The notes under the pieces were generated by a model. That model was not told the DNA's origin, did no database searches, and was given only the letters and a program-made list of their open reading frames with translations. A DNA stretch of 63,728 nt, counting the filler, from a bacterium (GTDB lineage: Bacteria > JALSQH01), in the NCBI GenBank assembly GCA_026985515.1. It is 9 parts of 9 records of this genome, joined end to end, with 100 filler letters (N's around TTAATTAATTAA, not from the genome) between each part and the next. Parts side by side here need not be neighbours in the genome. Positions count along the whole stretch, not along the records: positions 28,632 to 38,341 come from JALSQH010000033.1; positions 38,442 to 47,061 come from JALSQH010000034.1; 7 more parts are not named here. The stretch is one strand, 5' to 3'. Positions within the stretch are counted from its first letter, which is position 1, and every line of letters begins with the position of its first letter. Below are positions 4,996-61,914 of this stretch, one piece after another. The translations under genes were made by a program, and so were the position numbers.

Positions 4996-5095
4996 NNNNN
5001 NNNNNNNNNNNNNNNNNNNNNNNNNNNNNNNNNNNNNNNTTAATTAATTAANNNNNNNNNNNNNNNNNNNNNNNNNNNNNNNNNNNNNNNNNNNN
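4996..5095. other. Artificial contig linker (first of eight)
   Basis: N-run with TTAATTAATTAA six-frame stop; same linker at 10064, 28532, 38342, 47062, 52051, 56971 and 61815. Confidence 0.98.
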
Positions 5096-10063: not shown

Positions 10064-10163
10064 NNNNNNNNNNNNNNNNNNNNNNNNNNNNNNNNNNNNN
10101 NNNNNNNTTAATTAATTAANNNNNNNNNNNNNNNNNNNNNNNNNNNNNNNNNNNNNNNNNNNN

Positions 10164-23099: not shown

Positions 23100-23109
23100 C
23101 CTCATCCTC

Positions 23110-25260
23110 CTAATAATTTGCATCCTTACAGCATCTGAAACCTATATCTTTATCATGCCTGAAATATGCCTTCGGTCTCCTGGCAGAACATCTTGATTCA
23201 CCTTTTGTTCTTCTGTAAGATCCACCCTTTGTGACAAACATATTCTGTGCAGTCATGGTAGCAGTCCACTCAAGGAGATTGCCACTCATGTCATAAACAC
23301 CAAAACCACTTTTACACCCGGGAAGGGAACCGGAGGGAAGTATTTTTCCAAATCCTGCCTCAGAGGTGTTGCAGGCTCTGTTTTTGAAGCTCATCCCGTA
23401 GGGGAAGAGATTGTTTGAAGGACCCTTGCAAGCTCTCTCCCACTCAGCTTCGGTGCATAATCTTTTTCCCTGTGCTTTGCACAGATTATATGCCTGGGTA
23501 TAGGTCACTCCTGATCGGGGAACAGCACCCTTTTTGTTGGGGTACTCATATTTATCTATGCAGAATCCCTTTATGTATGTTCTGCCAAAATACTTATCAA
23601 AGAAACTGTCACGATACGGGTCATCGGGAGGTGAACCGTAAATAAAGTAACCTCCCGGGATATACACCATACCGGGGGGACAGCGGGGAGGTTTTGCCAT
23701 GGCCACTTTTTCAGGCTTCTGTTCTTTACTTACAGACTCCTTTTTCCCACCTGCCTCTGCCTTCACAGTTTCTTTTACTCTTTTCTTTTCCTCAGAGGCC
23801 ACTTTCTTCTCGGTTTTTCTGACCTTAACTTTCTGAGCAGTTTTCTCCACCTTTCTTTTAGATTCTGCCACATTTGCCTGTTTTTTTACCTGATTTGTTG
23901 AAGCTTTTACAGTTAACTGAGGCGTGGCAATACTTTTTCTGGCGACTCTTTGTGTAGTTTTGGGTGAAGTTAAACTACTTTCAGATTTATTTCTTCCCTT
24001 CCCCTGAAGAAAAACAAATGCTCCAGCCCCTCCTGCAAGTATCAGGAGAATAAGAAGTATCAGTGCCAGAGGGGATTTTTTCTTCTCAGGCTTCCTTTCA
24101 ATCCTCTCCTCTTCTTCCGGAGAAATCAGTTCTTCTTCAAACAGCAACTCCTTTTTCCGTTCCTTCTTTTCTTCCTTCTCTTCCCCCATTTCCTCTTCTG
24201 CAAACAGATCAACTTTCTTTGAAGGTTTCTCCTCTTCTGGGGGTTTCCCTTCCACTCCAGGTCCCTCTTCTTTTTTCTCCGGTTTTGCAGCTTTCCTCTG
24301 CTCCTCTTTCTTTTTCTTTATTGTTTCCTTCAGCAGTGACACCTTGCCTTCTCTTCCAGCAACGCGGCCAAATTCGTAGTGAAATTCCTCAATACAGCAG
24401 AACCTCTTTTCGGGATCCCTTGAAAGAGCTTTGAGAACTATTTCATCCACATCCCCTCTGATATCCGGGTTTATGGAAGAAGGAGGAGCAGGTTCAGCTT
24501 TGGGGATTGAGCAGGTGAGCATTTCATAAAGAATTACACCGAGGGCGTAAATATCAACTTTCTGGTCTATCTGGTCTGGAGCAGTGATATACTCCGGAGA
24601 AAGGTAGTAGTAAACATCTCCCAGAGCAAGCTGTACAGATACGAAATCCTGGGGAGGTAGAACTCTGCTGATCACATAATCGGTGACCTTTACACCACTG
24701 GCAGTTATGATCACATTTTCAGGTTTAAGATCACCGTGAAAACTGAATGTATGAATTTTCTCAAGGGCTTTTGCAATTCCATCAAAAATGGGAAATATCT
24801 CACTCAGAGAGAAAAACTGCTGTTTGTTCTTCTTTGCATTTATAACTTTCCTCAGGTCGATTCCGTCAATGTACTGTGTTACAATGAAGGGAACTCCCCT
24901 GAATTCGTCAATTTCAAAGTACTTGACCAGATTCTCATGATCAACTTCAAGAACCTTTCTGTGTTCATCAAAAAATCTATTTCGGATTTCCTGATCCTCG
25001 CAGAACTCCCTGTTGAGCATTTTAACTATGGAAATGACATCATACTTTGTGTCGTAAACTTTAAAGACGGTGCCTATTCCTCCGCTCCCGAGATTCTGCC
25101 TGATTTCAAAACGATCCTTTATCAAATCCCCCTCTTTGAGTGTCGAGGGATCAAGGATTTTGTCTCTGTCAATCTTTAAAATGGGCTTGATAATCTGACC
25201 ACAGTATGGGCAAACTTCAGCATCATCGGGAACTTCCTGAAGACACCTGAAGCATTTCAC
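23110..25260 (-). CDS. Membrane Ser/Thr kinase: Zn ribbon-kinase-TM-FGE/sulfatase-modifying domain
   Basis: CFRC/CPYC, GSGGIG, HGDLKPEN, YLSPE, DIYALG; TM; RLCTEAEWERAC, YDMSGNLLEW, GFRCC. Confidence 0.9.
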   Translation of the reverse strand: MKCFRCLQEVPDDAEVCPYCGQIIKPILKIDRDKILDPSTLKEGDLIKDRFEIRQNLGSGGIGTVFKVYDTKYDVISIVKMLNREFCEDQEIRNRFFDEHRKVLEVDHENLVKYFEIDEFRGVPFIVTQYIDGIDLRKVINAKKNKQQFFSLSEIFPIFDGIAKALEKIHTFSFHGDLKPENVIITASGVKVTDYVISRVLPPQDFVSVQLALGDVYYYLSPEYITAPDQIDQKVDIYALGVILYEMLTCSIPKAEPAPPSSINPDIRGDVDEIVLKALSRDPEKRFCCIEEFHYEFGRVAGREGKVSLLKETIKKKKEEQRKAAKPEKKEEGPGVEGKPPEEEKPSKKVDLFAEEEMGEEKEEKKERKKELLFEEELISPEEEERIERKPEKKKSPLALILLILLILAGGAGAFVFLQGKGRNKSESSLTSPKTTQRVARKSIATPQLTVKASTNQVKKQANVAESKRKVEKTAQKVKVRKTEKKVASEEKKRVKETVKAEAGGKKESVSKEQKPEKVAMAKPPRCPPGMVYIPGGYFIYGSPPDDPYRDSFFDKYFGRTYIKGFCIDKYEYPNKKGAVPRSGVTYTQAYNLCKAQGKRLCTEAEWERACKGPSNNLFPYGMSFKNRACNTSEAGFGKILPSGSLPGCKSGFGVYDMSGNLLEWTATMTAQNMFVTKGGSYRRTKGESRCSARRPKAYFRHDKDIGFRCCKDANY

Positions 25261-28531: not shown

Positions 28532-28631
28532 NNNNNNNNNNNNNNNNNNNNNNNNNNNNNNNNNNNNNNNNNNNNTTAATTAATTAANNNNNNNNNNNNN
28601 NNNNNNNNNNNNNNNNNNNNNNNNNNNNNNN

Positions 28632-29122: not shown

Positions 29123-30184
29123 ATGAGCTGTGAAGAAGAACTCATCGAACTTAAAAAGATCAATTCAAAATTACTAAAAACCAATCAGCAACTTGAACAA
29201 AAATTACTTGAACTTTACACCCTTTACAGCATTTCAAGGGAGCTGACTGATGCAACAGAGCTTGAAGAGATGTTGAACGCAACCATGCAAATCATGAAGG
29301 ACACTCTTGGAATAGATGGTTTCGTTGTTTATCTCAAAGATGACCTGTCAGATTTTTTTGTCCTGCAGAGTGTCTACGGAATAGATCCTGAGAAAATTCA
29401 GAACATCAGAATCTCCCCCAACGAGGAGATAATTAAGGAACTTTCTGAAAAAAACAAAATAATGGTGGATCTCTCAGAAAACAACATTCCAATTCTTTCA
29501 CCCGACCTGATAAAAAAAGGGAAAATGCTGCTCCTTTCCTTCAGAAACCTCGAAATGGTCGGTTTTATAGGGATTTTGAGAAGCAGCAGGGAATTTGAGA
29601 ATCATGAATGGGAATTTTTTGAAAATATGTCGGAACAGCTTACAAAAGCCATAGAAAAGTTTCTCCATCAAAAGAAAGTTCAGGACATGATAATCATTGA
29701 CACTGAGACAGGACTCTATAATAGAAAATTTTTCTTTGAGGCAATGAAAAGGGAATGGGAAAGAGCAAGAAGGTACAAACGATTTATGAGCCTAATGATA
29801 ATAAAAGTTAACAACTTCAATGAATTTTTTTCAAAACATGGTAGCAATCTCTCTGAAGCTTTACTGAGAAGTATTGCCCAAACCCTTTCAGCCAACATAA
29901 GATTCAGCGACATAATTGCCCGTTTCGGAATTGATGAATTCGCAATAATTCTTCCTGAAACCAATTCGGAAAAAGCTGAAAAAGCTGCAAGAAAGATTCT
30001 CAATATTCTGGAGAAAAAAAGATTCCTTGGTGAAAGCGAAATGGGAGAAAATGGAGTTACTTTCTCAATTGGTATTGCATCATATCCTGAGTCAGGAGAG
30101 GAACCTCTGAAAATTCTGAACAGCGCTATTGAAGCTACCAGGCTTGCTCAAAAAGGCGGACCCGGTAAAATTATTGTTGCATGA
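29123..30184 (+). CDS. GAF + GGDEF protein with degenerate site (GIDEF)
   Basis: DTETGLYNRK, ARFGIDEF, FSIGIA. Confidence 0.85.
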   Translation: MSCEEELIELKKINSKLLKTNQQLEQKLLELYTLYSISRELTDATELEEMLNATMQIMKDTLGIDGFVVYLKDDLSDFFVLQSVYGIDPEKIQNIRISPNEEIIKELSEKNKIMVDLSENNIPILSPDLIKKGKMLLLSFRNLEMVGFIGILRSSREFENHEWEFFENMSEQLTKAIEKFLHQKKVQDMIIIDTETGLYNRKFFFEAMKREWERARRYKRFMSLMIIKVNNFNEFFSKHGSNLSEALLRSIAQTLSANIRFSDIIARFGIDEFAIILPETNSEKAEKAARKILNILEKKRFLGESEMGENGVTFSIGIASYPESGEEPLKILNSAIEATRLAQKGGPGKIIVA

Positions 30185-31212
30185 AAATAGACGAATTTGA
30201 CTTTCATCTTCCTGAAGAACTCATAGCAATTTACCCGAGGAAAGAGAGAAGTTCCTCAAAATTGCTTGTGCTGTACAGGGAAAGTGGGGAAATAATACAC
30301 TCCTCATTCAAACATCTTCCTCAATTTCTTGACAGCAGTTTTCTCATCGTTTATAACGACACAAGAGTCATACCTGCAAGATTGTACCTTAAAAAAGAGA
30401 CAGGGGGAAGAATAGAAATTCTTCTTGACCACCCGGTGGGAGAAAATAGATGGACCGGGATCTTTTCAGCTTCAAAACCACCAAAAGTGAACTCGGACCT
30501 TTACTATGGGAAAGAAAAGGTGTTTAAAGTGGAAAAAGTGGAAAAAAATATGATAACCCTCAGATTCCTGGGGGAAGATTTCAAATCCTTCATAGAAAAA
30601 GCAGGGAATGTTCCCCTTCCTCCCTACATTCTCAAAAGAAGAAAAGGTGTGATACTTCCAGAGGATAGGGAATTTTATCAAACAATCTTTGCTGTAAAAA
30701 ATGGGGCTGTGGCAGCACCCACGGCAGGGATACATTTTGACGAGGAGGTATGGAAAAAATTAAAGGAAAAGAAAATTGAAAGTGTCCCGGTGACCCTACA
30801 TGTTGGAATTGGCACATTTCTCCCTGTTAAAACAGAAGAAGTTGAAAAACACAAAATGCATTCAGAAAGGGTGATTATCACAGAAGAAGCTGCAGAAAAA
30901 ATATCAATGTGGAAAGAAAAAGGGGGGAAAGTTCTTGCAATTGGTACCACGACAGTAAGAGCCCTTGAAGGAGTAATTGCAAAGACAGGAAAACTCACTG
31001 CCTTTGAAGGTGAAGTTGATATTTTCATATATCCGGGATTTAAATTTAAAATCGTTGACGCAATGATTACCAATTTTCATCTCCCAAGAAGCACACTGAT
31101 TCTCCTTGTTGCAGCCTTTGCAGGTAAAGATAAAATCATGAAAGCATACAGAGAGGCAATTGAGAAAAAATACAGATTCTTCAGTTACGGCGATGCAATG
31201 CTGATACTATAA
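30181..31212 (+). CDS. queA: S-adenosylmethionine:tRNA ribosyltransferase-isomerase
   Basis: PLPPYI, AAPTAG, TNFHLP, YRFFSYGD. Confidence 0.97.
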   Translation: MKIDEFDFHLPEELIAIYPRKERSSSKLLVLYRESGEIIHSSFKHLPQFLDSSFLIVYNDTRVIPARLYLKKETGGRIEILLDHPVGENRWTGIFSASKPPKVNSDLYYGKEKVFKVEKVEKNMITLRFLGEDFKSFIEKAGNVPLPPYILKRRKGVILPEDREFYQTIFAVKNGAVAAPTAGIHFDEEVWKKLKEKKIESVPVTLHVGIGTFLPVKTEEVEKHKMHSERVIITEEAAEKISMWKEKGGKVLAIGTTTVRALEGVIAKTGKLTAFEGEVDIFIYPGFKFKIVDAMITNFHLPRSTLILLVAAFAGKDKIMKAYREAIEKKYRFFSYGDAMLIL

Positions 31213-32352
<1,140 letters not shown>

Positions 32353-32361
32353 TCATTATTG

Positions 32362-35112
32362 TTAGTACCACAAAGGTTCAACTTTTTGAGGTGTAATTCT
32401 CCATGGATAATCTTCCAAACCTAAAATACCATACTGGCTCCTACCAAAACAATAGGCCTTATTATCAGAAGCAATACTACAGGTAAAACTGTTCCCTGCT
32501 GAAACATCCTGCCAAGTCTTAGAACTTTTAACTTTTACAGGAGAATAAAAAGACCCCCTACTTTTTATTCCCAATTCCCCATAATTATTATATCCCCAGC
32601 ATCTAATTGTATTATCCATTTGAATTGCACAGGTATGGAGCGGTCCTGCATCAACAGCTTTCCATTCATAATCTCCATCAACTTTTAAAGGCTCAGTTTC
32701 TCTATATGAAGAGTATCCAAGTCCAAGTTTACCCCATCTGTTGTCTCCCCAGCAGTAAAGAGAATGATCAGATTTAATAGCACAGTTATGGATAGAACCA
32801 GCTGTAATATATACCCAATCATTGTCACTACCAACCTGTTGAGGGGTATTGTAACTACTGGTATTTCCAATGCCAAGCTGTCCAAAATTATTTCTTCCCC
32901 AGCACCAGATAGTTCCATCATCCTTCAATCCACAAGTGTGATCACTACCAGTAACAACCTGTAACCAATCAGTATCTGTTCCAACCTGCTGGGGAGTATT
33001 ATAATTATTATTATCCCCAAGTCCCAGCTGTCCATAATTATTTCTTCCCCAGCACCACAGAGTTCCATTACTCTTCACGCCACAGGCATGGTAATATCCA
33101 GATGAGATATCACTCCAGTTGGAGTCGCTTCCAACTTGCTTTGGAAAATAAGAATTACCTGTATTTCCAATACCTAAGCGGCCATAAGCATTCCTCCCCC
33201 AACACCATAAAGTATGATCATCCTGTATCCCACATACAAAATTATTTCCAATGGAAAAATCTTGCCATTTCCCTGTTCCTGTATCTGAAACCTGCTGAAA
33301 AGTATTATAAAAATATATATCGGTATTTCCCACTCCTATTGTACCATAGGAATTATCACCTGTACATAGAAGCTTATCCTCACTGTTAATCAAACAGGTG
33401 TTATTTCCAAAAGTACCACCCTTGATCATTTTTACCGTTTTACCACTATAAGTCATAGTTGGCTCAAAAATATAACCGTTTTCTCCTATGCCAAGCTGTC
33501 CATCCCTAAAAAAGTTTCCCCAACAGTATAACCACCCATTTTTTATCATACAGGTGTGATCTTCCCCCCCGCTCATATAAGTTATACCAGGATCATCAGA
33601 GATAATATGAGGTGAGTTGACACGGTAGGTAGTACTTTCAAATCCCAATTGTCTGTAATCATTTTCACCCCAGCAGTAGAGTTTAGTATCATTTATGCCA
33701 CAGACATGTCTGCTTCCAGCTTTTACAAAACTCCACTTTGTACTTGTTCCAACCTGATTTGGAGAATTTTTACTTGCATAATCACCAGTACCAAGCTGAC
33801 CATAATAGTTGTGTCCCCAACACCAGAGGGTACCATTCTGTCTTAGCCCACAGGTAAAATAACCACCAGTGGTTAATTCAATCCAATCTGCATTAGCTCC
33901 AACCTGGTGGGGTGCATTGTATTCAAGATAATTTCCTGCACCAAGCTGCCCACTATTATTTGCTCCCCAGCAGTACAGAGTCCCATCTGTTTTAAGAGCA
34001 CATGTGTGATAGTAGCCTGCACTGACAGATTTCCAATCAGAATCACTTCCCACCTGCTGCGGAGAAGAATAATTTGAGTTATCACCCAATCCAAGTTGTC
34101 CGTTATTATTGTTCCCCCAGCACCACAGGGTACCATCAGCTTTCACCCCGCAGGTATGATAATATCCAGTGGTTACATCAACCCAATCCGTATCTTGCCC
34201 AATCTGCTGGGGAGTATAATAACTATTGTAAAATTCACCTACACCAAGCTGTCCATCATAGTTATACCCCCAGCACCACAGGGTTCCATCACTCTGGATA
34301 CCACATGTATGCATATATCCTGTGGATACGACTTTCCATATGGAATCATTGACTTTAACAGGATAATAATAGTAGCCTTGACCAGGGACACCAACTCTTC
34401 CCCATCCATTGTTTCCCCAACAATAGAGAAAACCCGCCTGGTTGATCCCACAGGTATAGCTTCCCCCAGCATCAACCATTTTCCAGTAAGTAGCTGTTAC
34501 TTCCCAGCTATAGGTGGCCGGGGTCTCATCTTTGTTTCCTGATGGATCTATTGCCCTCACATAAAAGGTGTGATGTCCTATAGAAAGACTTCTGTTTTCA
34601 TAAGGTGGCTTGCATGGAAACCAGTCTGAATTGTCAATCCTGCACTCAAATTCATCCACATATCCTGCAGTTCGATCAACTCCCGTGAAGGTAAAAAACG
34701 CCCTTGCAGTTGGTTCAGAGGGGCTGATATCAATAAATGTATCTGGAGGGAAAACATCTGGTGGTACAACAGGTTCTGTGGTTACACTTACTGCAATACC
34801 CTTTGAGTTAAACCCTGTTAATCTGTACACATAAGATATTCCATCAAACACACTATAATCTGTAAAAACATTCACTGAATCGGGAACCTCTGCCACTTTC
34901 ACAAAATTTCCCGATCCTTCCCTCCTCTCTACGAGAATTTTTCCACGGGCCTGAGAGGAAACTTTCCAGGAAACAACAATAGCTTTTTGTTCTTCACTCC
35001 ACACAGCACCGACTTTACTGAAAAGAGCTGTCTCAACGCTGGTTAAATGATTGTTGTTACAGGAAGCGAAGAAAAGAAAAAAAACAGGGATAAACCAAAC
35101 AAACTTTCTCAT
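32362..35112 (-). CDS. RCC1-repeat lipoprotein with FN3/Ig-like domains
   Basis: FASC lipobox; about 14 repeats of HTCG..LWCWG.N..GQLG. Confidence 0.9.
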   Translation of the reverse strand: MRKFVWFIPVFFLFFASCNNNHLTSVETALFSKVGAVWSEEQKAIVVSWKVSSQARGKILVERREGSGNFVKVAEVPDSVNVFTDYSVFDGISYVYRLTGFNSKGIAVSVTTEPVVPPDVFPPDTFIDISPSEPTARAFFTFTGVDRTAGYVDEFECRIDNSDWFPCKPPYENRSLSIGHHTFYVRAIDPSGNKDETPATYSWEVTATYWKMVDAGGSYTCGINQAGFLYCWGNNGWGRVGVPGQGYYYYPVKVNDSIWKVVSTGYMHTCGIQSDGTLWCWGYNYDGQLGVGEFYNSYYTPQQIGQDTDWVDVTTGYYHTCGVKADGTLWCWGNNNNGQLGLGDNSNYSSPQQVGSDSDWKSVSAGYYHTCALKTDGTLYCWGANNSGQLGAGNYLEYNAPHQVGANADWIELTTGGYFTCGLRQNGTLWCWGHNYYGQLGTGDYASKNSPNQVGTSTKWSFVKAGSRHVCGINDTKLYCWGENDYRQLGFESTTYRVNSPHIISDDPGITYMSGGEDHTCMIKNGWLYCWGNFFRDGQLGIGENGYIFEPTMTYSGKTVKMIKGGTFGNNTCLINSEDKLLCTGDNSYGTIGVGNTDIYFYNTFQQVSDTGTGKWQDFSIGNNFVCGIQDDHTLWCWGRNAYGRLGIGNTGNSYFPKQVGSDSNWSDISSGYYHACGVKSNGTLWCWGRNNYGQLGLGDNNNYNTPQQVGTDTDWLQVVTGSDHTCGLKDDGTIWCWGRNNFGQLGIGNTSSYNTPQQVGSDNDWVYITAGSIHNCAIKSDHSLYCWGDNRWGKLGLGYSSYRETEPLKVDGDYEWKAVDAGPLHTCAIQMDNTIRCWGYNNYGELGIKSRGSFYSPVKVKSSKTWQDVSAGNSFTCSIASDNKAYCFGRSQYGILGLEDYPWRITPQKVEPLWY

Positions 35113-35179
35113 AACCTCCCCCCTTTCCAGAAGATTTGAGTGATTATACCACATCGGAAGAAAAAAATCCAGCGGATAC

Positions 35180-35213
35180 TTGACATTCGATATTACATTT
35201 GTATAATAACGAA
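35180..35213 (+). promoter_or_regulatory. Consensus promoter overlapped by a ModE box
   Basis: TTGACA(35180)-16-TATAAT(35202); 28-bp inverted repeat TTCGATATTACA-TTTG-TATAATAACGAA = CGATAT-N12-ATAACG. Confidence 0.85.
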
Positions 35214-35216
35214 CAA

Positions 35217-35579
35217 ATGAAGATCAAATCCAAGATATGGATCGAAGACAACGAGGGTAAAACAATTATAAGTTACGGTAAGTATCTCCTGCTGAAGGAG
35301 ATTTCAAAAACTCATTCTCTATCAGAATCAGCATCAAATCTTGGCCTTTCCTTTCGTAAAGCGTGGATAATGATCAAAACTATGAATGAGAGAGCTGGTA
35401 CCCCTCTTGTAATTACAAAGAAGGGAGGAGCTGGTGGTGGAGGAGAAACTTTTTTAACTCCAGAGGGTGAAAAATTGATCCAGTTTTTTGAGATACTCAA
35501 CAGAGAAGTTGAACATCTGACCGGAAGTTTTGAAAAAGTAATATGGGATAATCTACCATCAAACCCTGAAAAGGAGTGA
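35217..35579 (+). CDS. modE: ModE-family regulator, wHTH domain only
   Basis: KSKIWIE, SLSESASNLGLSFRKAW, KKGGAGGGET.LTPEG; no TOBE domains. Confidence 0.88.
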   Translation: MKIKSKIWIEDNEGKTIISYGKYLLLKEISKTHSLSESASNLGLSFRKAWIMIKTMNERAGTPLVITKKGGAGGGGETFLTPEGEKLIQFFEILNREVEHLTGSFEKVIWDNLPSNPEKE

Positions 35580-35582
35580 AAG

Positions 35583-37517
35583 ATGTTGATTCACCTCGTT
35601 TTTTACTTACTCACAGTTACATCATCCACTTTCTCGTCTCCCCAGACTACAGTTTCAAATCATTATTTCAAGCAAGTAAGTTCGGTAACTCCTGGAAGCT
35701 TCACCATAGGAGAAGTAGTGGTGACTGCCAGAAGGGTTTTACCATCAACCCGTCTCTACATAAGAAAACAGGATATTGAAGAAAAGGGAGCAATTTCCCT
35801 TGAAAAAATCTCAAATCTAACCCCTGTAATAAACACCCAGCAAACATCCAGAGGTGATACATACATCTACCTCTCTGGCTTCAACCACAAGGAGATTCAG
35901 ATATACCTTGATGGGATTCCGGTTTATATCCCTTACAATGGTGATATTGGAGCTGACATACTCAAACTGATAAATGTTGAAAAAATTGTTATTGAACCTG
36001 TGCTCCCTTCCCTCTTTTATGGTCCCAACGCTATGGGGGGAGCAGTTAATATTCTCTCAGCATCTCCTGAGGAAGGCTTACATGGAAAGGGAGTTGCGGA
36101 GATAAGCAGTTCGTGGGGGAAAAGTTTTAAACTGATCCTTGGAGACAGAAGCGGTCATCTCTACGGTGGAGCATCAACATATCTATGGAAAGACCCTGGA
36201 TTCATTCTCTCTAAAAAATTCCACTCCTCTTTAAATGAAAATGGAGGATTGAGAGAAAACAGTTACAGCAACGGATACTCATTTTTCGGATACACAGGAT
36301 ATCAGGATGAGGAAGATTTCCTCACGGTAAGATACTACAAAACATCCATGGAGAAAGGTGTACCACCTGAAGTCAACTCCACCAGGCCCAGATACTGGAA
36401 ATTTACCGACTGGGAAAAAGATTTTCTAAATCTGGTGGGTAAAAAACACTTCAAAAAATTTCTACTGAGGTTTAACTCAGCATATACCGGTTACTACAAT
36501 GTCCTTGATTCATACGATAACAGCTACTATACGACACAAACCAGACGATATGCATTCCACTCCACATATGATGACTACACCCTTCTTGATACATTGACTG
36601 GATCCATGTCCATTGGAGAGGCATCCATCTCAACAATGCTCCTGTACAGAAAAGATATTCACAGGGAACAATCCGATTATAATAAAGAATGGGAAAAGTA
36701 TGGTCAGGAATTGTACTCAACTGCAGTAAGGGCAACATTTCAGCATAAAAAATTGATCTTCCTCACAGAGGGCAGATACGACTACCTTGCAGCATTCAAA
36801 TACCACAACAGTCAGGCAACAAACTACCGCTTTGGCACAAGGTATCTTACAGATTCAGGTAAAATTGACATTATCTTTGGTTCCACAACAAGATTTCCTA
36901 CAATGAAGGAAAAGTACTCCCATCATCATGGAAAAAGCATTCCAAACCCGGATCTGAAACCTGAAAGTCAGACGGCAGTTGTTCTGAAGTATCAAAATGA
37001 TTTTTCAAATCATTTCCTTCTTACCACCTATGCTTTTTACTCCAGAATAAGAAATCTTATTCAATCCAAATATGTTGATGAAAATATCACACAGAATCAG
37101 AACATTGCAAAGGCAGAAATTGAAGGATTCTATGTTTTCGCTGAATACTTTCAGAGTAATATGAACATATCCGGGAGCCTAACAGGTACATGGGCCAAAG
37201 ACTTAACAAATAATTTGCACCTTCCATACAGACCCAGGTGGAAAATCAACATTTCAGGGGATTATTCAATATGGAAAATAAAAATCAACTGTGGTATCAA
37301 TGGAGAATTCATAAATTTTTATCAGGATGAAAAAAACGGCGAAATAAAAAAATTACCCTCCTGGTACACTGTGGATATGGGGTCAGAGTTTAATTTCTCC
37401 AGCAACTTCTCAGCATATTTTCGAGTGGAAAACGTTTTCGACCGTAACTACGAGACAGAACAAGGTTTCCCGGCCCCGGGAAGAATGATATATGCTGGAA
37501 TCAGGGGAAAATTTTGA
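35583..37517 (+). CDS. TonB-dependent receptor
   Basis: EVVVTA TonB box, YLDGIP, YGPNAMGGAVNI, NPDLKPE, ENVFDRNY, terminal F. Confidence 0.92.
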   Translation: MLIHLVFYLLTVTSSTFSSPQTTVSNHYFKQVSSVTPGSFTIGEVVVTARRVLPSTRLYIRKQDIEEKGAISLEKISNLTPVINTQQTSRGDTYIYLSGFNHKEIQIYLDGIPVYIPYNGDIGADILKLINVEKIVIEPVLPSLFYGPNAMGGAVNILSASPEEGLHGKGVAEISSSWGKSFKLILGDRSGHLYGGASTYLWKDPGFILSKKFHSSLNENGGLRENSYSNGYSFFGYTGYQDEEDFLTVRYYKTSMEKGVPPEVNSTRPRYWKFTDWEKDFLNLVGKKHFKKFLLRFNSAYTGYYNVLDSYDNSYYTTQTRRYAFHSTYDDYTLLDTLTGSMSIGEASISTMLLYRKDIHREQSDYNKEWEKYGQELYSTAVRATFQHKKLIFLTEGRYDYLAAFKYHNSQATNYRFGTRYLTDSGKIDIIFGSTTRFPTMKEKYSHHHGKSIPNPDLKPESQTAVVLKYQNDFSNHFLLTTYAFYSRIRNLIQSKYVDENITQNQNIAKAEIEGFYVFAEYFQSNMNISGSLTGTWAKDLTNNLHLPYRPRWKINISGDYSIWKIKINCGINGEFINFYQDEKNGEIKKLPSWYTVDMGSEFNFSSNFSAYFRVENVFDRNYETEQGFPAPGRMIYAGIRGKF

Positions 37518-38341
37518 TGGACACTCTGCTGATTGTGGAGGGTCTGAGTTTCAGGAATCCATTCACAGGTGAATTTATACTAAAGGATGTTACCTTCAAT
37601 GTAAAGAGGGGGGAAATAGTAGCGATACATGGCCCATCTGGTTCAGGTAAATCAACTCTTCTAAAAATTCTGGATGGTTACAGGGAACTTGACATAGTTT
37701 CAGGTAAAGTTGTAAATAAGAGCAGCATGATAAGGGTCCCACAGGAACCATACAGCAGGATGCTTCATCCTGCAGTTAAAAATATTCTTTCTTCTTATGC
37801 AAGAGAAATGCTTCTTCACAGTGGAAAGGGACAACTGCTTACCAGAAAAACTTTTCAACTTTCCTATGGAGAGAAGAAACTGATTACAATTATTCACGCC
37901 CTCAGCGAAGAGGACCCTCTGATTATCATGGATGAACCTTTTGCAGGCTTGGACGAAGAGGCAAAAGAGTTTGTAAAGGAAGAAATCAAAAGGGCAAAAG
38001 AGAGGGGTAAGGGTTTTATAATCGTTGATCACACCGGCACATTGTCAGAAAGTGAAAAAAACTTTTATATTGATACAGAGTTAAGAACATTGACGGATAA
38101 AAAGAAAAAGCATCAGAGGAAGAATTTCTCAATAAATTTTAAAAACGACGCAGATGAAGAGGTTCTTTTAAAAATAGAAAAAATTGAGATAAAAAAGGGA
38201 GAGAGAATTATAAAATTACCTGCCTGTCTTGAAATAAAAAGAGGCAAAACCTTTTTCATCACAGGTAAAAATGGAAGTGGAAAAACCTCCATTCTCAGAG
38301 CCGTGGCAGGATGGGAAAAAGTGGTAAGAGGTGAAATAAAT
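37514..38341 (+). CDS. Tandem-domain ABC ATPase (ECF A-A' like), first part
   Basis: GPSGSGKS, LSYGE, IIMDEP, second Walker A GKNGSGKT. Confidence 0.85.
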
Positions 38342-38441
38342 NNNNNNNNNNNNNNNNNNNNNNNNNNNNNNNNNNNNNNNNNNNNTTAATTAATTAANNN
38401 NNNNNNNNNNNNNNNNNNNNNNNNNNNNNNNNNNNNNNNNN

Positions 38442-38825
38442 ATGAGATGGAGTAAGATAGAAGACAGAAGGGGAAAAATCTTTTTCCTGACCCAGATTCC
38501 CGAAACCAATTTTTCAGGCAATACTCTGGAAGATCTGATAAAAAAATTCAAAATCACCATGGAAAAAATTGAAGAATATGCTCTTATTAAAAATCTGCAC
38601 ACACCCCTCGTTTACCTGAGTTACGGAGAAAAGATTAAGGTGAATCTACTTATTGGTGAGGTCCTGAAACCAGAACTCATAATGGTAGATGAAACCTACA
38701 CATCTCTTGACTCCAGGAGTCTTGAATCTCTGTTTCAGTTTGTTACCAGATGGACAGAAGAAGGTTCCAGCGTTATAATAACATCACCAGAACCAGTTGC
38801 GGGGAGTTTTTCACTCAATGGGTAA
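38442..38825 (+). CDS. C-terminal part of the same tandem ABC ATPase
   Basis: Q-loop, LSYGE and MVDE complete the second NBD begun before the gap. Confidence 0.8.
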   Translation: MRWSKIEDRRGKIFFLTQIPETNFSGNTLEDLIKKFKITMEKIEEYALIKNLHTPLVYLSYGEKIKVNLLIGEVLKPELIMVDETYTSLDSRSLESLFQFVTRWTEEGSSVIITSPEPVAGSFSLNG

Positions 38826-39345
38826 AAGCATTTCATATGGTGCAATATTCGGGATTTTGATTGCTATGTGGGAGATATTTGCAGGCAATTTTCTTCATCA
38901 GTTACAGCTTCCATTTAAGGGAGAAATATTATCCACTTTTGACATCTTTATATTCAGTTATGTTCTTGCAAAAACAGGGAAAAGAGAAACAATTCTTCTA
39001 ATCACTGTGGTTGCCCTTGTCATCAGAGCTTTCATCTCCGGCACATTCATTCCCGGTGCAGTCATAGGGCTTGGTGCCACCGGCACTCTCTACTTCGCAG
39101 GAAGCTATTTTTCAAGGTTTAAATATTACATTTCTGGACTTCTGGCAGGCTTATGGGCACCATTCTTCTTTGGATATATTCAGTTAAAACTGCTGGGACC
39201 CGAAATTCTCCAATCATATAAAATCCTCTTCAGTAAAATAGGCCTGGGAACTTCACCATCAGCCATAATCAATTTCACCCTTTTAACAGGGGCAATTGCA
39301 GGTTTAGCAGCTTCACTTACCGGGAAAAAAATGGCAGGAAAATGA
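38818..39345 (+). CDS. Membrane protein, putative ECF S component
   Basis: 175 aa, about 6 TM helices, WEIFAGNFLHQLQLPFKG motif, follows the tandem ATPase. Confidence 0.6.
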   Translation: MGKSISYGAIFGILIAMWEIFAGNFLHQLQLPFKGEILSTFDIFIFSYVLAKTGKRETILLITVVALVIRAFISGTFIPGAVIGLGATGTLYFAGSYFSRFKYYISGLLAGLWAPFFFGYIQLKLLGPEILQSYKILFSKIGLGTSPSAIINFTLLTGAIAGLAASLTGKKMAGK

Positions 39346-39845
39346 AACTCCTCACCGGCGTTCTCCTGATAATTTTAAGTTTAATCCACATGGATATCAA
39401 TTTTCTCTCCATAATCACAGGCTTATCCCTTATTCCTCTCGTAATTAAAAGAAAAGGAGTGGGATTATCCATCATCCTTCTGAGTTTTCTGCCGGTAGTG
39501 GTGCTTCCCACAGAGTATAAAATGCTTCTACCCAATTCATTAAAGCTTCTCCTGAGATTTCAGGGCTTTTACATGATAGCAAGCTGGACCGGAAATTATG
39601 TGTCGGAAAAACTAACACTACCCCTTGCAAAAAAAACACCTCTGGGATACTCGCTTCTCCTGGCACTTAACATATTCCCCCACATCTCACAATTTGTTAA
39701 AGATTCCTTCAATCAAATGAGACTGAGAAAAAGGTGGGTCAGATTTTTCCCGGGATACCTGTCCTTCCTTCTACTATATCTTTCCCATTATGCTGATGAA
39801 CTCGGTTATGAAATTGAAAGGGTACTTTCAAGGGAAGAGAAATGA
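39342..39845 (+). CDS. Membrane protein, putative short ECF T component
   Basis: N-terminal TMs, then LALNIFP...QMRLR coupling-helix-like segment. Confidence 0.5.
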   Translation: MKLLTGVLLIILSLIHMDINFLSIITGLSLIPLVIKRKGVGLSIILLSFLPVVVLPTEYKMLLPNSLKLLLRFQGFYMIASWTGNYVSEKLTLPLAKKTPLGYSLLLALNIFPHISQFVKDSFNQMRLRKRWVRFFPGYLSFLLLYLSHYADELGYEIERVLSREEK

Positions 39846-40300
39846 TCAGGAAAATAAAAAAAGGTAACATACTTTTTATTTCGGGACCTGTCAACTCTGG
39901 CAAAACCACATTTCTGTCAGGCATCATTTCACACGACAATGAAAAATTTATAGGTTTTCTGGCACCTTCCGGCTATCTCTTCGGGAAAAAAATCTACTAC
40001 CTGAAAGGAGTTAACATTCCATTTTCTGGAATCATAGCCTCAAGAGACCCCACCCTGATCCATCCACCAATCTTAAAGTGGAAAAACTTTTTCTTCTCAC
40101 TTTACCTATTTAACTCTGTCACAAGTTACGTTATTGATAATGCAAAGAAATTTCACTACGTGGTTATTGATGAAATAGGACCCCTGGAATATGAAGGTAA
40201 AGGATGGAACAATCTTTCTGATTTTGTTGTCAAAAGAAATATGAAAGCGATAATTATAACAAGAAATTTCAAAGAGCTAGCAAAAAAACTTGAAATTTGA
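39842..40300 (+). CDS. THEP1/NTPase_1-like P-loop NTPase
   Basis: GPVNSGKTT, GFLA, VVIDEIGPLE. Confidence 0.8.
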   Translation: MIRKIKKGNILFISGPVNSGKTTFLSGIISHDNEKFIGFLAPSGYLFGKKIYYLKGVNIPFSGIIASRDPTLIHPPILKWKNFFFSLYLFNSVTSYVIDNAKKFHYVVIDEIGPLEYEGKGWNNLSDFVVKRNMKAIIITRNFKELAKKLEI

Positions 40301-40324
40301 TTTAGAATGTGATATATTATGAAA

Positions 40325-40406
40325 CAAGAAAATTAAAACTGTGTTTTGCTTATACCCCTCCCCCCTCCCCCGGCGGGAAAGCGGCCTGCTTTCCTGCCGT
40401 TTTTTT
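40325..40406 (+). ncRNA. Candidate C-rich sRNA
   Basis: TTGAAA-17-TATATT promoter with TG extension (40290-40318), CCCCTCCCCCCTCCCCC tract, terminator. Confidence 0.45.
40371..40406 (+). terminator. Rho-independent terminator
   Basis: 12-bp stem CGGCGGGAAAGC/GCTTTCCTGCCG followed by T7. Confidence 0.85.
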
Positions 40407-41625
40407 ACCCACATCCAAGCAGTTCGGTAAACAGATCCATATAATTGCTGAGAAGTCTTGTGATCAGAAACTTTTCTCTAACAAGTTCTTTTCCTCTTTT
40501 ACCCATCACCTCTGCCATTTCAGGATTTCTCAGCAATTCAATAATCCTGCTGGCAAATCCTTCTATATCTGTGGGGTCAAGAAGGAAGCCATTATAGCCA
40601 TCTTTAATCTGAAGCGGTATACCTCCCACATTGGAAGCAACCACAGGCTTGCCCTTCCACAGAGCCTCAGTAACCGTCAATCCAAATCCTTCTCTCAGAG
40701 ATTTCTGAATGACCACTGCGGCTCTTCTCTGGAGAGCATTTACAAGGAAATTGTTCTCAATATTTATCAGCACAAGATCTCCAGACTCAATCAACTTTGA
40801 GTATTTTCTTTCTATCCTTCCAAAGATATGCCATCCTTCCGGGTCATCTGTCGCCATGCTCCCGCAGAGAATCAACCTCACATCAAATTCTTCTTTTACA
40901 AGTTTCCAGACCTCAATTACTCCCTCTGGATCCTTCCATTTGTCAAACCTGGAAACCTGAAGTATAAATGGTTTCTTATGAAGGTCAGGGACAAATTTTT
41001 TGAGAAAATTGTCAAACTCCTCTTCCGGGAAATCTCTGTTTTTTACAGACAATGGATCAATGGCGGGATAGAAAACTTTCTGTTCTATGGGTAGTTCTTT
41101 CCTTTTATAATTCTCGTGGGAAACGATCATAACATCATACCTTAATATCAATGGCTTGAGAAAATCACATATTTCTTCATTGGGATTGGAAAGATCCACA
41201 TGACATCTCCACACCCAGGGTTGTCTTTTCTTATAAAACTTTATAAGGGGCAGTGGCTGAGGATCGTGGATAACCACAATATCATGCTGGATGTGAGTGT
41301 AAACGGAAAAATTCTCGTTTGTTTGAAAATAAAGGTCCTTTTTGTGTTCCGTCAGGCGTATTTTGTCACCCTGAAGAGCATTGTGAATCTTTTTGGTTAC
41401 TCCAAAGAAATCCTCATTGGCGTGAAGGATTCTCCAGCCTGCATCAATACCAACATCATTCATAAGAGGCACAAGGGTGGTCAGCATTTCAGCAACTCCA
41501 CCACCCTGAAAAGTGGAGTTAATGTTCAAAATCCTCTTATTGTAAAGTCTCCTTGCCTTTCTGTAAATTTCCGTAATAACAGCATCGTCAACAATACCCC
41601 TGTAATTTTCAAGTGTTATCACCAT
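40405..41625 (-). CDS. treT: Trehalose glycosyltransferring synthase (GT4)
   Basis: NSTFQGGGVAEML, FFGVTKKIHNALQG, IHDPQP, WRCHVD, SRFDKWKD, EGFGLTVTEA. Confidence 0.88.
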   Translation of the reverse strand: MVITLENYRGIVDDAVITEIYRKARRLYNKRILNINSTFQGGGVAEMLTTLVPLMNDVGIDAGWRILHANEDFFGVTKKIHNALQGDKIRLTEHKKDLYFQTNENFSVYTHIQHDIVVIHDPQPLPLIKFYKKRQPWVWRCHVDLSNPNEEICDFLKPLILRYDVMIVSHENYKRKELPIEQKVFYPAIDPLSVKNRDFPEEEFDNFLKKFVPDLHKKPFILQVSRFDKWKDPEGVIEVWKLVKEEFDVRLILCGSMATDDPEGWHIFGRIERKYSKLIESGDLVLINIENNFLVNALQRRAAVVIQKSLREGFGLTVTEALWKGKPVVASNVGGIPLQIKDGYNGFLLDPTDIEGFASRIIELLRNPEMAEVMGKRGKELVREKFLITRLLSNYMDLFTELLGCG

Positions 41626-41626
41626 A

Positions 41627-43810
41627 CTACCTCACTTTTAAAATTTCTCTGAGAAGATCTCTTACACAGGCAGGTTTTTCAACAAAATATTTGGCATGAG
41701 ATGGTTTTATTCCCACCTTTATTGAATAGGCAAAATCAGGCAGAGCTTTAAACACATCTTCGTCAGTTCTGTCATCACCAGCTGCCAGGATAAAATCCCA
41801 TTTCTCCTCAAGCCACCTTCCAAGGGCTGTTCCCTTATTGACACCTGCACTCTTTATTTCAATCACCTTGTGTCCTTCCAGAACAGAAATAGCCTGATTC
41901 GCAATATATGGTTTCAATGCAAATTTTAACTCTGCAACTTTCATTTTACTCTGCTCAGGATCAGCCATCCTGTAATGCCAGGCAAGGGAATAATCCTTCT
42001 CCTCGATAAATGTTCCGGGAGTGGCTATCGTGAATTTCTCGAGCATCTTTCTTATCTCATCTTTCCAGGAAATATCTAGTGGTCCAAATGTTTCCCATTC
42101 GCTTCCTCTTCTTTTTATCCAAACTCCATGTTCTGCCACAAGTGAAATATTGAGATCACCAAACCACTTTTCCAGAAAATCTTTCCCCCTTCCACTTATT
42201 ACAATAACTTCGGAGCCACTGGTTACTGAAAGAGATTTCAAAATCTCAATAATCTCATCGTCAGGGACTGCAAGTTCCGGGCTTTTCTGAAGAGGAATCA
42301 GTGTTCCATCATAATCAAGAACAAAAAGCCTCTTTGAAGAATTTGTGAAATCTTCAATTAACTTTTTAACAACTGCATCTGAAAGTTTCTTTCCCCTCTT
42401 TTCAGCCTGCTCCCTTTTGACCATTAGAAGATGATTTATGAACTCTTCAGCCCATCTGTTCACATCGTAACTTTTCAACCTCTCCTGCATTCTCGAATTC
42501 CTTCTAACAATTTCATCTTCATCAACATTCAGTGCCTCCATAATTGCATCGGCAATTGACTTAACATCATAGGGATTTATTAAAATTGCCTCATTCATTT
42601 CTTTGGCGGCCCCCGCCATCTCACTCAGGATCAAAACCCCCGGCTCCTTCTGTTTTACAGCAATGTATTCTTTGGCAACAAGATTCATTCCGTCCCTCAA
42701 TGGAGTAACAAGAGCAATATCAGCTGAAAGGTAGTAACCGGCCAGCGTATCCTTATCAAAAGAATGATAATAAAACAATATAGGGGTCCAGTTTCTTGTT
42801 GCAAAGGCACCATTTATTTTGCCGACAAGTCCATCCACTTCTCTTTTGATCTCGGCGTAAAATTCCACATCTTCCCGGGAAGGCACTACAATCAGGATAT
42901 AGACAATTTTTTCACGATATTCTGGATGATCCCTCAGAAACAGTTCAAATCCCCTGAGTCTGTTTACAATCCCCTTTGTGTAATCAAGACGATCAACAGA
43001 CAGCATTATTTTCATTCCAGGATACTGGGATCTGAGTTCGTTTACTATGTTCCTGACATTTTCTTTTTTTCCCTTAGATGACCATTTTTCATAATCTATA
43101 CTGATCGGAAAAGCTTCCACTTTAATCGATCTGCCATCCACTATATAGAAGAGCTCATTTTCCATACCAAGAATTTTAAGAACGCTATTTAAGAAGTAGT
43201 TTCCATACTCATATGTGTGGAAGCCAATCAGGTCAGACCCGATCAATCCCTCAAGGATCTCTTTCCTCCAGGGAATAATTCTGAACATCTCATACGCTGG
43301 AAATGGAATGTGGAGAAAAAAACCTATTGTTGCATCCCTGAATTTCTCTCTTATCATACCGGGGACAAGCATTAAATGATAGTCATGAATCCACAGGATA
43401 TCATTTTCATCCAGTATCCTTTCGATAACCTCTGCATATTTCCTGTTAACATCAACATAGTTTTTCCAGTGTTCATGGTTGAATTCCGTATACTGAGGAA
43501 AATAGTGAAAAAGTGGCCATATCACCTTGTTGCTGAAACCCTGATAAAACCCCTCAATATTTTTTCTGGAAAGAAGGACAGGATAGCAATTATCACTGTT
43601 GAGCCGGTGAACCACCTCTACTATATCATCATTGGTCAACTCCTCAGAGGCAATTCCTGGCCAGCCAACCCACAGAGTCTCATATCTGGAACTCAGAGAG
43701 CTAAGGGCAGTGGCAAGACCACCCGAACTTTTGTGGAAAAGGAGCTTTTTCCCGCTCTTCTTTACAGTGTATTTGGAACGATTGGATACAATTATTAATC
43801 TCTGACTCAC
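41627..43810 (-). CDS. Bifunctional trehalose-6-P synthase/phosphatase (TPSP)
   Basis: [37 protein letters not shown], then HAD motifs DYDGTL and GDDRTDED. Confidence 0.95.
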
Positions 43811-47061: not shown

Positions 47062-47161
47062 NNNNNNNNNNNNNNNNNNNNNNNNNNNNNNNNNNNNNNN
47101 NNNNNTTAATTAATTAANNNNNNNNNNNNNNNNNNNNNNNNNNNNNNNNNNNNNNNNNNNN

Positions 47162-52050: not shown

Positions 52051-52150
52051 NNNNNNNNNNNNNNNNNNNNNNNNNNNNNNNNNNNNNNNNNNNNTTAATT
52101 AATTAANNNNNNNNNNNNNNNNNNNNNNNNNNNNNNNNNNNNNNNNNNNN

Positions 52151-56970: not shown

Positions 56971-57070
56971 NNNNNNNNNNNNNNNNNNNNNNNNNNNNNN
57001 NNNNNNNNNNNNNNTTAATTAATTAANNNNNNNNNNNNNNNNNNNNNNNNNNNNNNNNNNNNNNNNNNNN

Positions 57071-61814: not shown

Positions 61815-61914
61815 NNNNNNNNNNNNNNNNNNNNNNNNNNNNNNNNNNNNNNNNNNNNTTAATTAATTAANNNNNNNNNNNNNNNNNNNNNNNNNNNNNN
61901 NNNNNNNNNNNNNN

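Follow-up and report, generated by a model that had tools for sequence, protein, structure and literature searches.

The 63,728-nt stretch of bacterial DNA analyzed here (hereafter, the window; assembly GCA_026985515.1) contains, at positions 35180–40410, a cassette of six co-directional open reading frames (ORFs) on the plus strand, which encode a ModE-like helix-turn-helix (HTH) protein, a TonB-dependent receptor (TBDR), a double ATP-binding cassette (ABC) ATPase, two membrane proteins (designated A and B), and a THEP1-type nucleoside triphosphatase (NTPase). In its architecture, the cassette is a split group-I-type importer resembling the energy-coupling factor (ECF) transporters, with a YkoD-like fused ATPase, plus an NTPase subunit that occurs in no described ECF system. 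Molybdenum (Mo) and tungsten (W) are known to be taken up by the binding-protein-dependent importers ModABC, TupABC, and WtpABC. We propose that the cassette is probably an undescribed W/Mo uptake route, in which the receptor, the ECF-like importer, and the NTPase together carry a cargo, likely a W or Mo species, across two membranes; the probability of this whole statement is, in our estimate, roughly 0.55. Of its parts, the assignment of the inner-membrane machinery to an ECF-like importer is well favored, and a cargo related to Mo or W is somewhat favored.

The features of the cassette are as follows (NBD, nucleotide-binding domain).

35180–35207, plus strand: sigma-70-type promoter, TTGACA-16-TATAAT, matching the consensus at 12 of 12 positions
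35187–35212, no strand assigned: possible operator, the imperfect dyad TCGATAT-N12-ATAACGA, overlapping the promoter; weak
35217–35579, plus strand: short ModE-type regulator of 120 aa (counted from the ATG), consisting of a DNA-binding domain alone (TIGR00637)
35583–37517, plus strand: TBDR, 644 aa (Plug, PF07715)
37514–38341, plus strand: fused double ABC ATPase, first 276 aa, with NBD1 and the start of NBD2 (ABC_tran)
38442–38825, plus strand: fused double ABC ATPase, last 127 aa, with the remainder of NBD2 (weak ABC_tran and cbiO matches)
38818–39345, plus strand: putative S-component-like membrane protein A, 175 aa (182 aa if begun at 38797), from a fusion-family model and predicted fold
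39342–39845, plus strand: putative short T-component-like membrane protein B, 167 aa, from its position as the middle domain of the fusion family
39842–40300, plus strand: THEP1-type P-loop NTPase, 152 aa (PF03266)
40371–40409, plus strand: intrinsic terminator, a stem followed by TTTTTTT, shared with a convergent trehalose synthase gene

As the earlier note on this DNA had described, the six genes are tightly coupled, their junctions ranging from a spacing of 3 nt to overlaps of 1–8 nt, and they are bounded by a consensus promoter and a terminator. The promoter was the only perfect one among 14 promoter-like sites in 34900–40700 (13.1 expected from shuffled sequences), and the same perfect boxes with the same spacing occurred at 1922–1949 of a 7121-nt contig (L001) from a second metagenome genome, G001. 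The complete set of six genes was present on this contig in unchanged order, and the orthologues were 36–59% identical. The −10 box lies inside a listed TTG-started ORF (start at 35199); therefore, the regulator must begin at the ATG at 35217. This ATG follows the −10 box by 9 nt in the window and by 7 nt in L001 (35180–35219; L001 1922–1959), a distance that makes the regulator mRNA probably leaderless, and no Shine-Dalgarno sequence precedes the regulator gene in either the window or L001. At the other end, the terminator stem (40371–40399) has 13 pairs, eight of which are G-C, and is followed by the run of T. The cassette is probably a single transcription unit, and the operon is almost certainly real.

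The three genes at the end of the operon correspond to the domains of a larger protein family. A word-indexed search (5.8 billion) recovered four close relatives of A, including A itself, and a profile of these four matched 232 proteins at E ≤ 1e−3 among 1.84 billion representatives. Among the 150 matches listed of the 232, 52 were 530–630 aa in length, 25 were 370–435 aa, 39 were 165–235 aa, and 34 had other lengths. The Pfam scan of these relatives took in ten proteins, four long and six of 195–399 aa; all four long proteins (P0007, P0009, P0013, and P0021) had a C-terminal NTPase_1 domain (8.7e−13 to 6.3e−22) with weaker DUF2478 matches, and no Pfam family was assigned to the six others. 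The G-K of Walker A and the D-E of Walker B were invariant in an alignment of 46 long fusion members. When a hidden Markov model (HMM) of 56 long members was used (E-values with Z set to 1e6), A of the window matched its first domain (9e−12) and the NTPase its last (3.3e−12), and the L001 and L003 orthologues gave the same domain matches. B, which was related to its orthologues in L001 (4e−29) and L003 (3e−7; ten targets), fell on the middle domain of the fusions in a MAFFT alignment of 30 rows, in which P113 was invariant and R72 nearly invariant, and an HMM of B gave marginal matches (E-values of 0.016–0.25) in the right region of the stored proteins. The last three genes thus match, in order, the three domains of one fusion protein, which is a classical argument for one working unit. 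The profile of A recovered one genome locus and two metagenome loci from the sequence collections and none from the viral collection, and a tblastn search of plasmids with P0007 gave no match.

The predicted structure of a fusion protein suggests what this unit is. The AlphaFold2 (AF2) model of P0013 (predicted local distance difference test [pLDDT] score of 90.2, predicted template modeling [pTM] score of 0.86) was compared with 48,161 chains using VIA-align, a tool with which helical proteins can reach a Z of 13 by chance arrangement. Residues 6–199 were most similar to the thiamine-binding protein YkoE (5edl; Z 14.1, 169 aligned residues, root-mean-square deviation [rmsd] 5.1), and other S components followed: TmRibU (5kbw, 10.0), BioY (4dve, 9.3), FolT (4z7f, 8.8), CbiM (5x3x_M, 8.5), PanT (4rfs_S, 8.3), ThiT (4tkr, 8.0), and NikM (4m5c, 7.9). 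Residues 209–393 were similar to EcfT, the T component of the folate ECF transporter (5d3m_D; Z 7.9, 180 aligned residues, rmsd 6.4), and residues 396–569 were similar to THEP1 (1ye8, Z 17.4) and NTPCR (2i3b, Z 15.5). The Atlas model of A itself (pTM 0.83) resembled an ECF_trnsprt/riboflavin cluster (TM score 0.68) and a TrpP cluster (0.57), and all 30 of its feature matches were clusters of PF09605 Trep_Strep (score 0.92), a family whose NCBI name we take to be putative ECF S-components. The S-type assignment is based on the top Z together with the many independent S-component structures that filled the match list; by fold, and not by membership in an S-component Pfam family, A clearly has a predicted S-component fold. 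For B, the top structural row in the Atlas was a CbiQ cluster (TM 0.44/0.46), and one cluster matched by features has CbiQ in 30% of its members. Of the earlier proposal that the membrane proteins are ECF-like, the S-type half is therefore upheld by the YkoE match, and the T-type half has the weak support of the EcfT match.

The NTPase of the cassette is a member of PF03266 (30.6 bits, against a gathering cut-off of 23.9) and is predicted to hydrolyze nucleoside triphosphates; its Walker A (G20-K21) and Walker B (D110-E111) residues were invariant in the NTPase alignment. G001 also encodes a canonical stand-alone THEP1 (C17, positions 2050–2541; L005), which scored 145 bits compared with 27 bits for the cassette copy, indicating that the cassette NTPase is a diverged paralogue rather than the housekeeping copy. 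In the P0013 model, the NTPase begins approximately five residues past the last helix of the middle domain. Complex prediction for A, B, and the NTPase gave a score of 0.00 twice, which, in runs without controls, speaks neither for nor against binding.

The first piece of the window ATPase gave two ABC_tran stretches (2.4e−27), the last piece matched ABC_tran weakly, and two ABC_tran domains occurred within the single 410-aa chain of L001. At the ABC signature place, both NBDs read LSYGEK (37514–38825; L001 4276–5508), with WSYGEK in NBD2 of L001, and the translations of the two orthologues show a second NBD that lacks the switch histidine (IITSPEP and IIITTPET). The signature and switch-histidine positions are taken from the general motifs rather than computed; on this reading of the sequence, one site of the ATPase seems degenerate and the protein therefore asymmetric. 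No ModA-, TupA-, or WtpA-type binding-protein gene was present in the operon, as the earlier note had pointed out, and tblastn with the WtpA of a relative gave no match in the 63.7-kb window; canonical wtpABC genes are located elsewhere in G001. Two ABC domains, no substrate-binding protein, and all parts in one operon are the properties of a group I ECF transporter, and A and B are the only membrane partners that the operon offers to the ABC ATPase.

The product of the second gene is a TBDR, as judged from its Plug domain (PF07715; 5.5e−11, 43.4 bits against a cut-off of 23.9) and from matches in the C-terminal barrel region, where receptor models aligned over residues 302–644. No Pfam barrel model was among its matches at E ≤ 0.1, and no match was found among Protein Data Bank (PDB) sequences. 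A TonB-box-like GEVVVTA (according to the consensus that we presume for this motif) is located near the N-terminus, a C-terminal Phe is present, and the L001 orthologue is 54% identical over its full length. The host appears to be diderm.

The regulator is clearly related to ModE, although it scored below the curated bar: its match to TIGR00637 reached 3.2e−21 and 75.2 bits (cut-off, 98.5), and that to ModE PRK10676 reached 3.6e−14 and covered ModE positions 23–94 only. The next-best model was CbbR at 0.028, so the ModE-domain match is specific. The L001 orthologue, 59% identical, scored 88.5 bits with TIGR00637, likewise under 98.5, and its gene was the only match to the ModE DNA-binding model in the 1.5-Mb G001. 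The imperfect dyad overlapping the window promoter agrees with the E. coli ModE consensus (PMC545781) in its spacing and in its outer bases. The core pattern of this dyad occurred once in the window (0.05 expected), with the pattern having been picked after the match was seen.

The link to Mo and W is circumstantial and consists of the ModE domain, a DUF364 gene next to the cassette in L001, and the gene content of G001. The DUF364 gene (6.1e−10) lies directly upstream of the cassette, at 1118–1879 of L001. Such genes have been reported beside tungstate, molybdate, vanadium, and iron transport genes (PMC2954201), and a DUF364 gene occurs in the modABC operon of M. maripaludis, an operon that is cofit with nifH (bioRxiv 10.1101/2024.03.05.583561). 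Among the G001 genes are those for an aldehyde:ferredoxin oxidoreductase of the tungsten type (AFOR_C, 338 bits), a single molybdopterin oxidoreductase, and the proteins MoaC (179 bits) and MoeA (144 bits), as well as the WtpABC importer (WtpA, 393 bits against a cut-off of 355). The enzymes indicate that this lineage depends on W or Mo and synthesizes the pterin itself; therefore, import of the metal is more likely than salvage of a finished cofactor. The earlier suggestion of a bulky Mo/W compound or of the pterin cofactor as cargo stays conjectural, and MoaC, MoeA, and WtpABC in the relative speak against a need to salvage the cofactor.

On this basis, the cassette may operate as follows. 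When Mo/W is low, the product of the first gene, a short ModE-type repressor that would bind over its own promoter and probably set expression, would leave that promoter. The TonB-energized receptor would then move tungstate or molybdate species into the periplasm; the presence of a receptor suggests that the cargo is at a very low concentration or in a chelated form. A, as the S-type protein, would capture the cargo without a soluble binding protein and topple against B, which would act as the T-type protein on which the double ABC ATPase docks and which that ATPase drives, the whole step running inward and being modeled on ECF transporters (PMC5037267). The THEP1-type NTPase would be an integral part of the complex, its fourth subunit, attached at the cytoplasmic end of B, a placement seen in the predicted structure of fused relatives alone. 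Because the ABC motor and the NTPase coexist, the NTPase is unlikely to be a mere replacement motor in this cassette, and we favor, with low confidence, a role in gating or in handing on the cargo. The cargo would most likely be a W or Mo species, that is, the metal, free or chelated, rather than a pterin cofactor.

Several results weigh against this interpretation, beginning with the assignment of B, which is tentative: the EcfT match (Z 7.9) is inside the chance range of the tool, our own AF2 model of B (pLDDT 72, pTM 0.42) matched helical hairpins (best Z 6.5), and no ECF T chain was listed for that model by VIA-align. The CbiQ HMM did not detect B in G001, and the fusion HMM did not report B of the window, its only B match being the L003 orthologue (0.095, positions 243–371). 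Alignment of B with the fusions using hhalign covered the expected region at an E-value of 0.083, and a homology search from B recovered only B itself. For the fusion protein, Foldseek with the whole P0013 chain at E ≤ 1e−3 returned THEP1 and NTPCR only, the membrane domains being seen with VIA-align alone, and profiles A2 and A3 found no ECF chain, including 5EDL, among PDB sequences. The ATPase sequence is that of a generic ABC protein, with EcfA2 as one match among many. The L003 locus carries the end of the ATPase, A, and B, and no NTPase gene follows B, so the NTPase may either be nonessential or have its gene at another locus. On the cargo side, the presence of wtpABC in G001 means that a second Mo/W route is not obviously needed. 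The full E. coli ModE consensus was matched at 12 of 20 positions in both the window and the L001 promoters; 74 sites in the window reach this score. Furthermore, no C-terminal Mop domain was detected in the 120–126-aa regulator by the family model scan; the regulator therefore has no known way of sensing Mo/W, and a sensing role for the short ModE itself is conjectural.

Mop-less ModE genes beside mod operons are known, and their sensing mechanism is described as unexplained in PMC545781. A separate observation in G001 concerns the Mop domain: at L011 (C185, positions 3–2678), wtpABC follows a tandem-Mop ORF, which the contig end interrupts precisely at the boundary of the domain. The two parts of ModE may be encoded at separate loci in this genome, one gene for the HTH and one for Mop; alternatively, the contig may end within a second, full-length ModE.

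The best-surviving alternative keeps the same machine with another cargo, such as a corrinoid, a heme or iron chelate, a thiamine precursor, or nickel/cobalt, and regards the ModE-like HTH protein as a small winged-helix repressor that responds to another signal. The best family matches of the TBDR were indeed heme/hemoglobin (2.5e−25) and B12 (3e−22) receptor models, but both were far beneath the family cut-offs (89 against 317 bits and 79 against 600 bits, respectively). YkoE, the best structural match of the S-like domain, binds thiamine, the NTPase domain of the fusion resembles the corrinoid adenosyltransferase CobA (1g5r, Z 9.1), the regulator lacks Mop, and the Fur-box consensus fits the promoters about equally well, at 11 of 19 positions in the window and 13 of 19 in L001. 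Against this stand the specificity of the ModE-domain match relative to CbbR and the DUF364 gene adjoining the cassette in L001, with its published context of Mo/W transport. The association with B12 riboswitches that the earlier note had named as contrary to its reading was not seen: an Rfam scan of the whole window at gathering thresholds gave no matches, including none to B12, THI, or Moco (RF01055) riboswitches. RF01055 was likewise not found in G001, which is an incomplete genome. Taken together, another cargo appears rather unlikely.

A variant of the W/Mo reading, which we also regard as unlikely and put forward only tentatively, is that the cassette represents, in unfused form, a W/Mo pathway that is widespread but undescribed and in which a small chelate (a "tungstophore" or "molybdophore") enters through the TBDR and the ECF-like importer. 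In that case, the NTPase would be a fourth ECF subunit that releases or hands on the metal in the cytoplasm, or a second motor that replaces the ABC ATPase in the fusions, and the chelate would possibly be made by the neighboring DUF364 enzyme of the S-adenosylmethionine (SAM)-cyclase type. The only characterized DUF364 member cyclizes methyl-SAM to methyl-azetidine carboxylic acid (PMC12930334). From this SAM chemistry, one may speculate that a small aminocarboxylate chelator is the product of Mo/W-linked DUF364 proteins.

A third alternative is that A, B, and the NTPase do not form an importer but a membrane-anchored NTPase device for sensing, for handing on a cofactor or metal, or for assembly, with the double ATPase having a non-transport function. 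Neither A nor B can be placed in a transporter family from its sequence, both lacking a Pfam or NCBIfam match even at E ≤ 10, and the module in relatives is mostly a single chain with the NTPase and without an ABC domain. However, the S-type fold matched ten ECF S-component structures (Z 7.9–14.1, including two of FolT and two of PanT), the operon pairs the module with an outer-membrane receptor of the importer type, and the ABC ATPase lacks any other membrane partner there. We consider this alternative improbable, and return to the W/Mo importer as the preferred reading.

The cassette spans a contig linker of the form N44-TTAATTAATTAA-N44 at 38342–38441. The right-hand contig is a separate metagenome record (L002), the first base of which is exactly 38442. 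The two ATPase pieces of the window aligned with residues 20–279 and 284–398 of the intact 410-aa ATPase in L001, and this four-residue interval suggests that approximately four codons are hidden in 38342–38441. Among Logan contigs, one from run X1, possibly the source run, terminates exactly at 38341, and a 414-nt contig from run X2 of another study is identical over 38152–38341 and continues 224 nt beyond. It is very improbable that the operon is an artefact of binning in which the contigs joined here are not neighbors, even though the window is a chain of nine contigs and the X1 contig stops at the same base, because both ends hold consecutive parts of one double ATPase with approximately four residues unaccounted for, the whole cassette is on a single contig in L001, and the X2 contig extends past 38341. 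The continuity across the gap that the earlier note had argued from the split NBD is thus supported.

The nine contigs of the window are chained by eight identical N44-TTAATTAATTAA-N44 linkers, and gene order over any of them is a scaffolding claim, not assembled sequence. The linkers are at the following positions.

4996–5095
10064–10163
28532–28631
38342–38441
47062–47161
52051–52150
56971–57070
61815–61914

Among known systems, the closest in architecture is YkoEDC of B. subtilis, a group I ECF transporter encoded by one operon, in which YkoE is the 5EDL structure and YkoD consists of two fused NBDs (PMC5037267). Like YkoEDC, the cassette has a dedicated set of S-like, putative T-like, and ATPase parts in one operon, fused NBDs, and no binding protein, and YkoE is the best structural match of its S-like domain (Z 14.1). 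In contrast, it has no detectable sequence similarity to YkoE or YkoC and no THI-box, its T-like protein is much shorter (167 aa), and a THEP1-type NTPase, a TBDR, and a ModE-type regulator are added. The inner-membrane part fits no ECF sequence family, although it is like the group I YkoEDC in architecture. The unnamed family of S-like/T-like/THEP1 fusions (P0007 and P0013) shares with the cassette a homologous first domain (A) and last domain (NTPase), with B occupying the place of the middle domain; it differs in that the cassette parts are separate genes, with a double ABC ATPase in the operon and probable control by a ModE-type protein. The split form, the coexisting ABC motor, and the probable control by a protein regulator are new.

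The ModE-regulated modABC operon resembles the cassette in combining a ModE-related domain with a transport operon, and in modABC, wtpABC, and tupABC, as proposed here, an ABC ATPase powers uptake. Unlike these systems, the cassette has no ModA, WtpA, or TupA and no ModB-type permease, its regulator lacks Mop, and an outer-membrane receptor is included. THEP1 of Aquifex aeolicus (aq_1292, 1YE8), human NTPCR (2I3B), and PF03266 share the P-loop NTPase fold and motifs with the NTPase of the cassette, whereas the subfamily of the cassette is tied to a membrane module by fusion or by operon. To our knowledge, THEP1 and NTPCR are free soluble proteins with no known partner. The earlier statement that no characterized system resembles the cassette is consistent with the literature searched, which covered papers apart from their supplements: no paper was found that describes such a system, an ECF-type or TonB-dependent Mo/W route, or a transporter-attached THEP1. 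The available text of PMC11734730 describes no such system, and that of Regulski 2008 (PMC2408646) does not mention TonB, COG1618, or an NTPase.

If the proposed W/Mo route is correct, ECF transporters would gain a new substrate class and a THEP1 NTPase as a type of subunit, and an orphan NTPase family would receive its first physiological setting. TonB-dependent receptors would acquire a role in Mo/W uptake, and short Mop-less ModE proteins would have a defined target. Through its protein regulator, the cassette would tie the module to Mo/W, and because the ABC motor and the NTPase are separate genes here, the role of each is directly testable by deletion.

The surroundings of the cassette differ between the two genomes. 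In the upstream regions (30181–35154 of the window and 3–1879 of L001), both have a tgt gene; the interval between tgt and the cassette contains an opposite-strand gene for a 930-aa RCC1-repeat protein in the window, and a TauE-like permease gene and the DUF364 gene in L001. These differing genes indicate that the flank has been exchanged and the cassette kept. A second TBDR (756 aa) is encoded on the minus strand within 20853–25260 of the window, beside a 716-aa protein in which a Ser/Thr protein kinase is fused to an FGE-sulfatase domain; an ABC_sub_bind protein is encoded downstream. On the other side of the cassette, at 40405–43810 on the minus strand, a TreT-type trehalose synthase gene lies beside a fused trehalose-6-phosphate synthase/phosphatase gene, such that two side-by-side trehalose routes converge on the cassette terminator.

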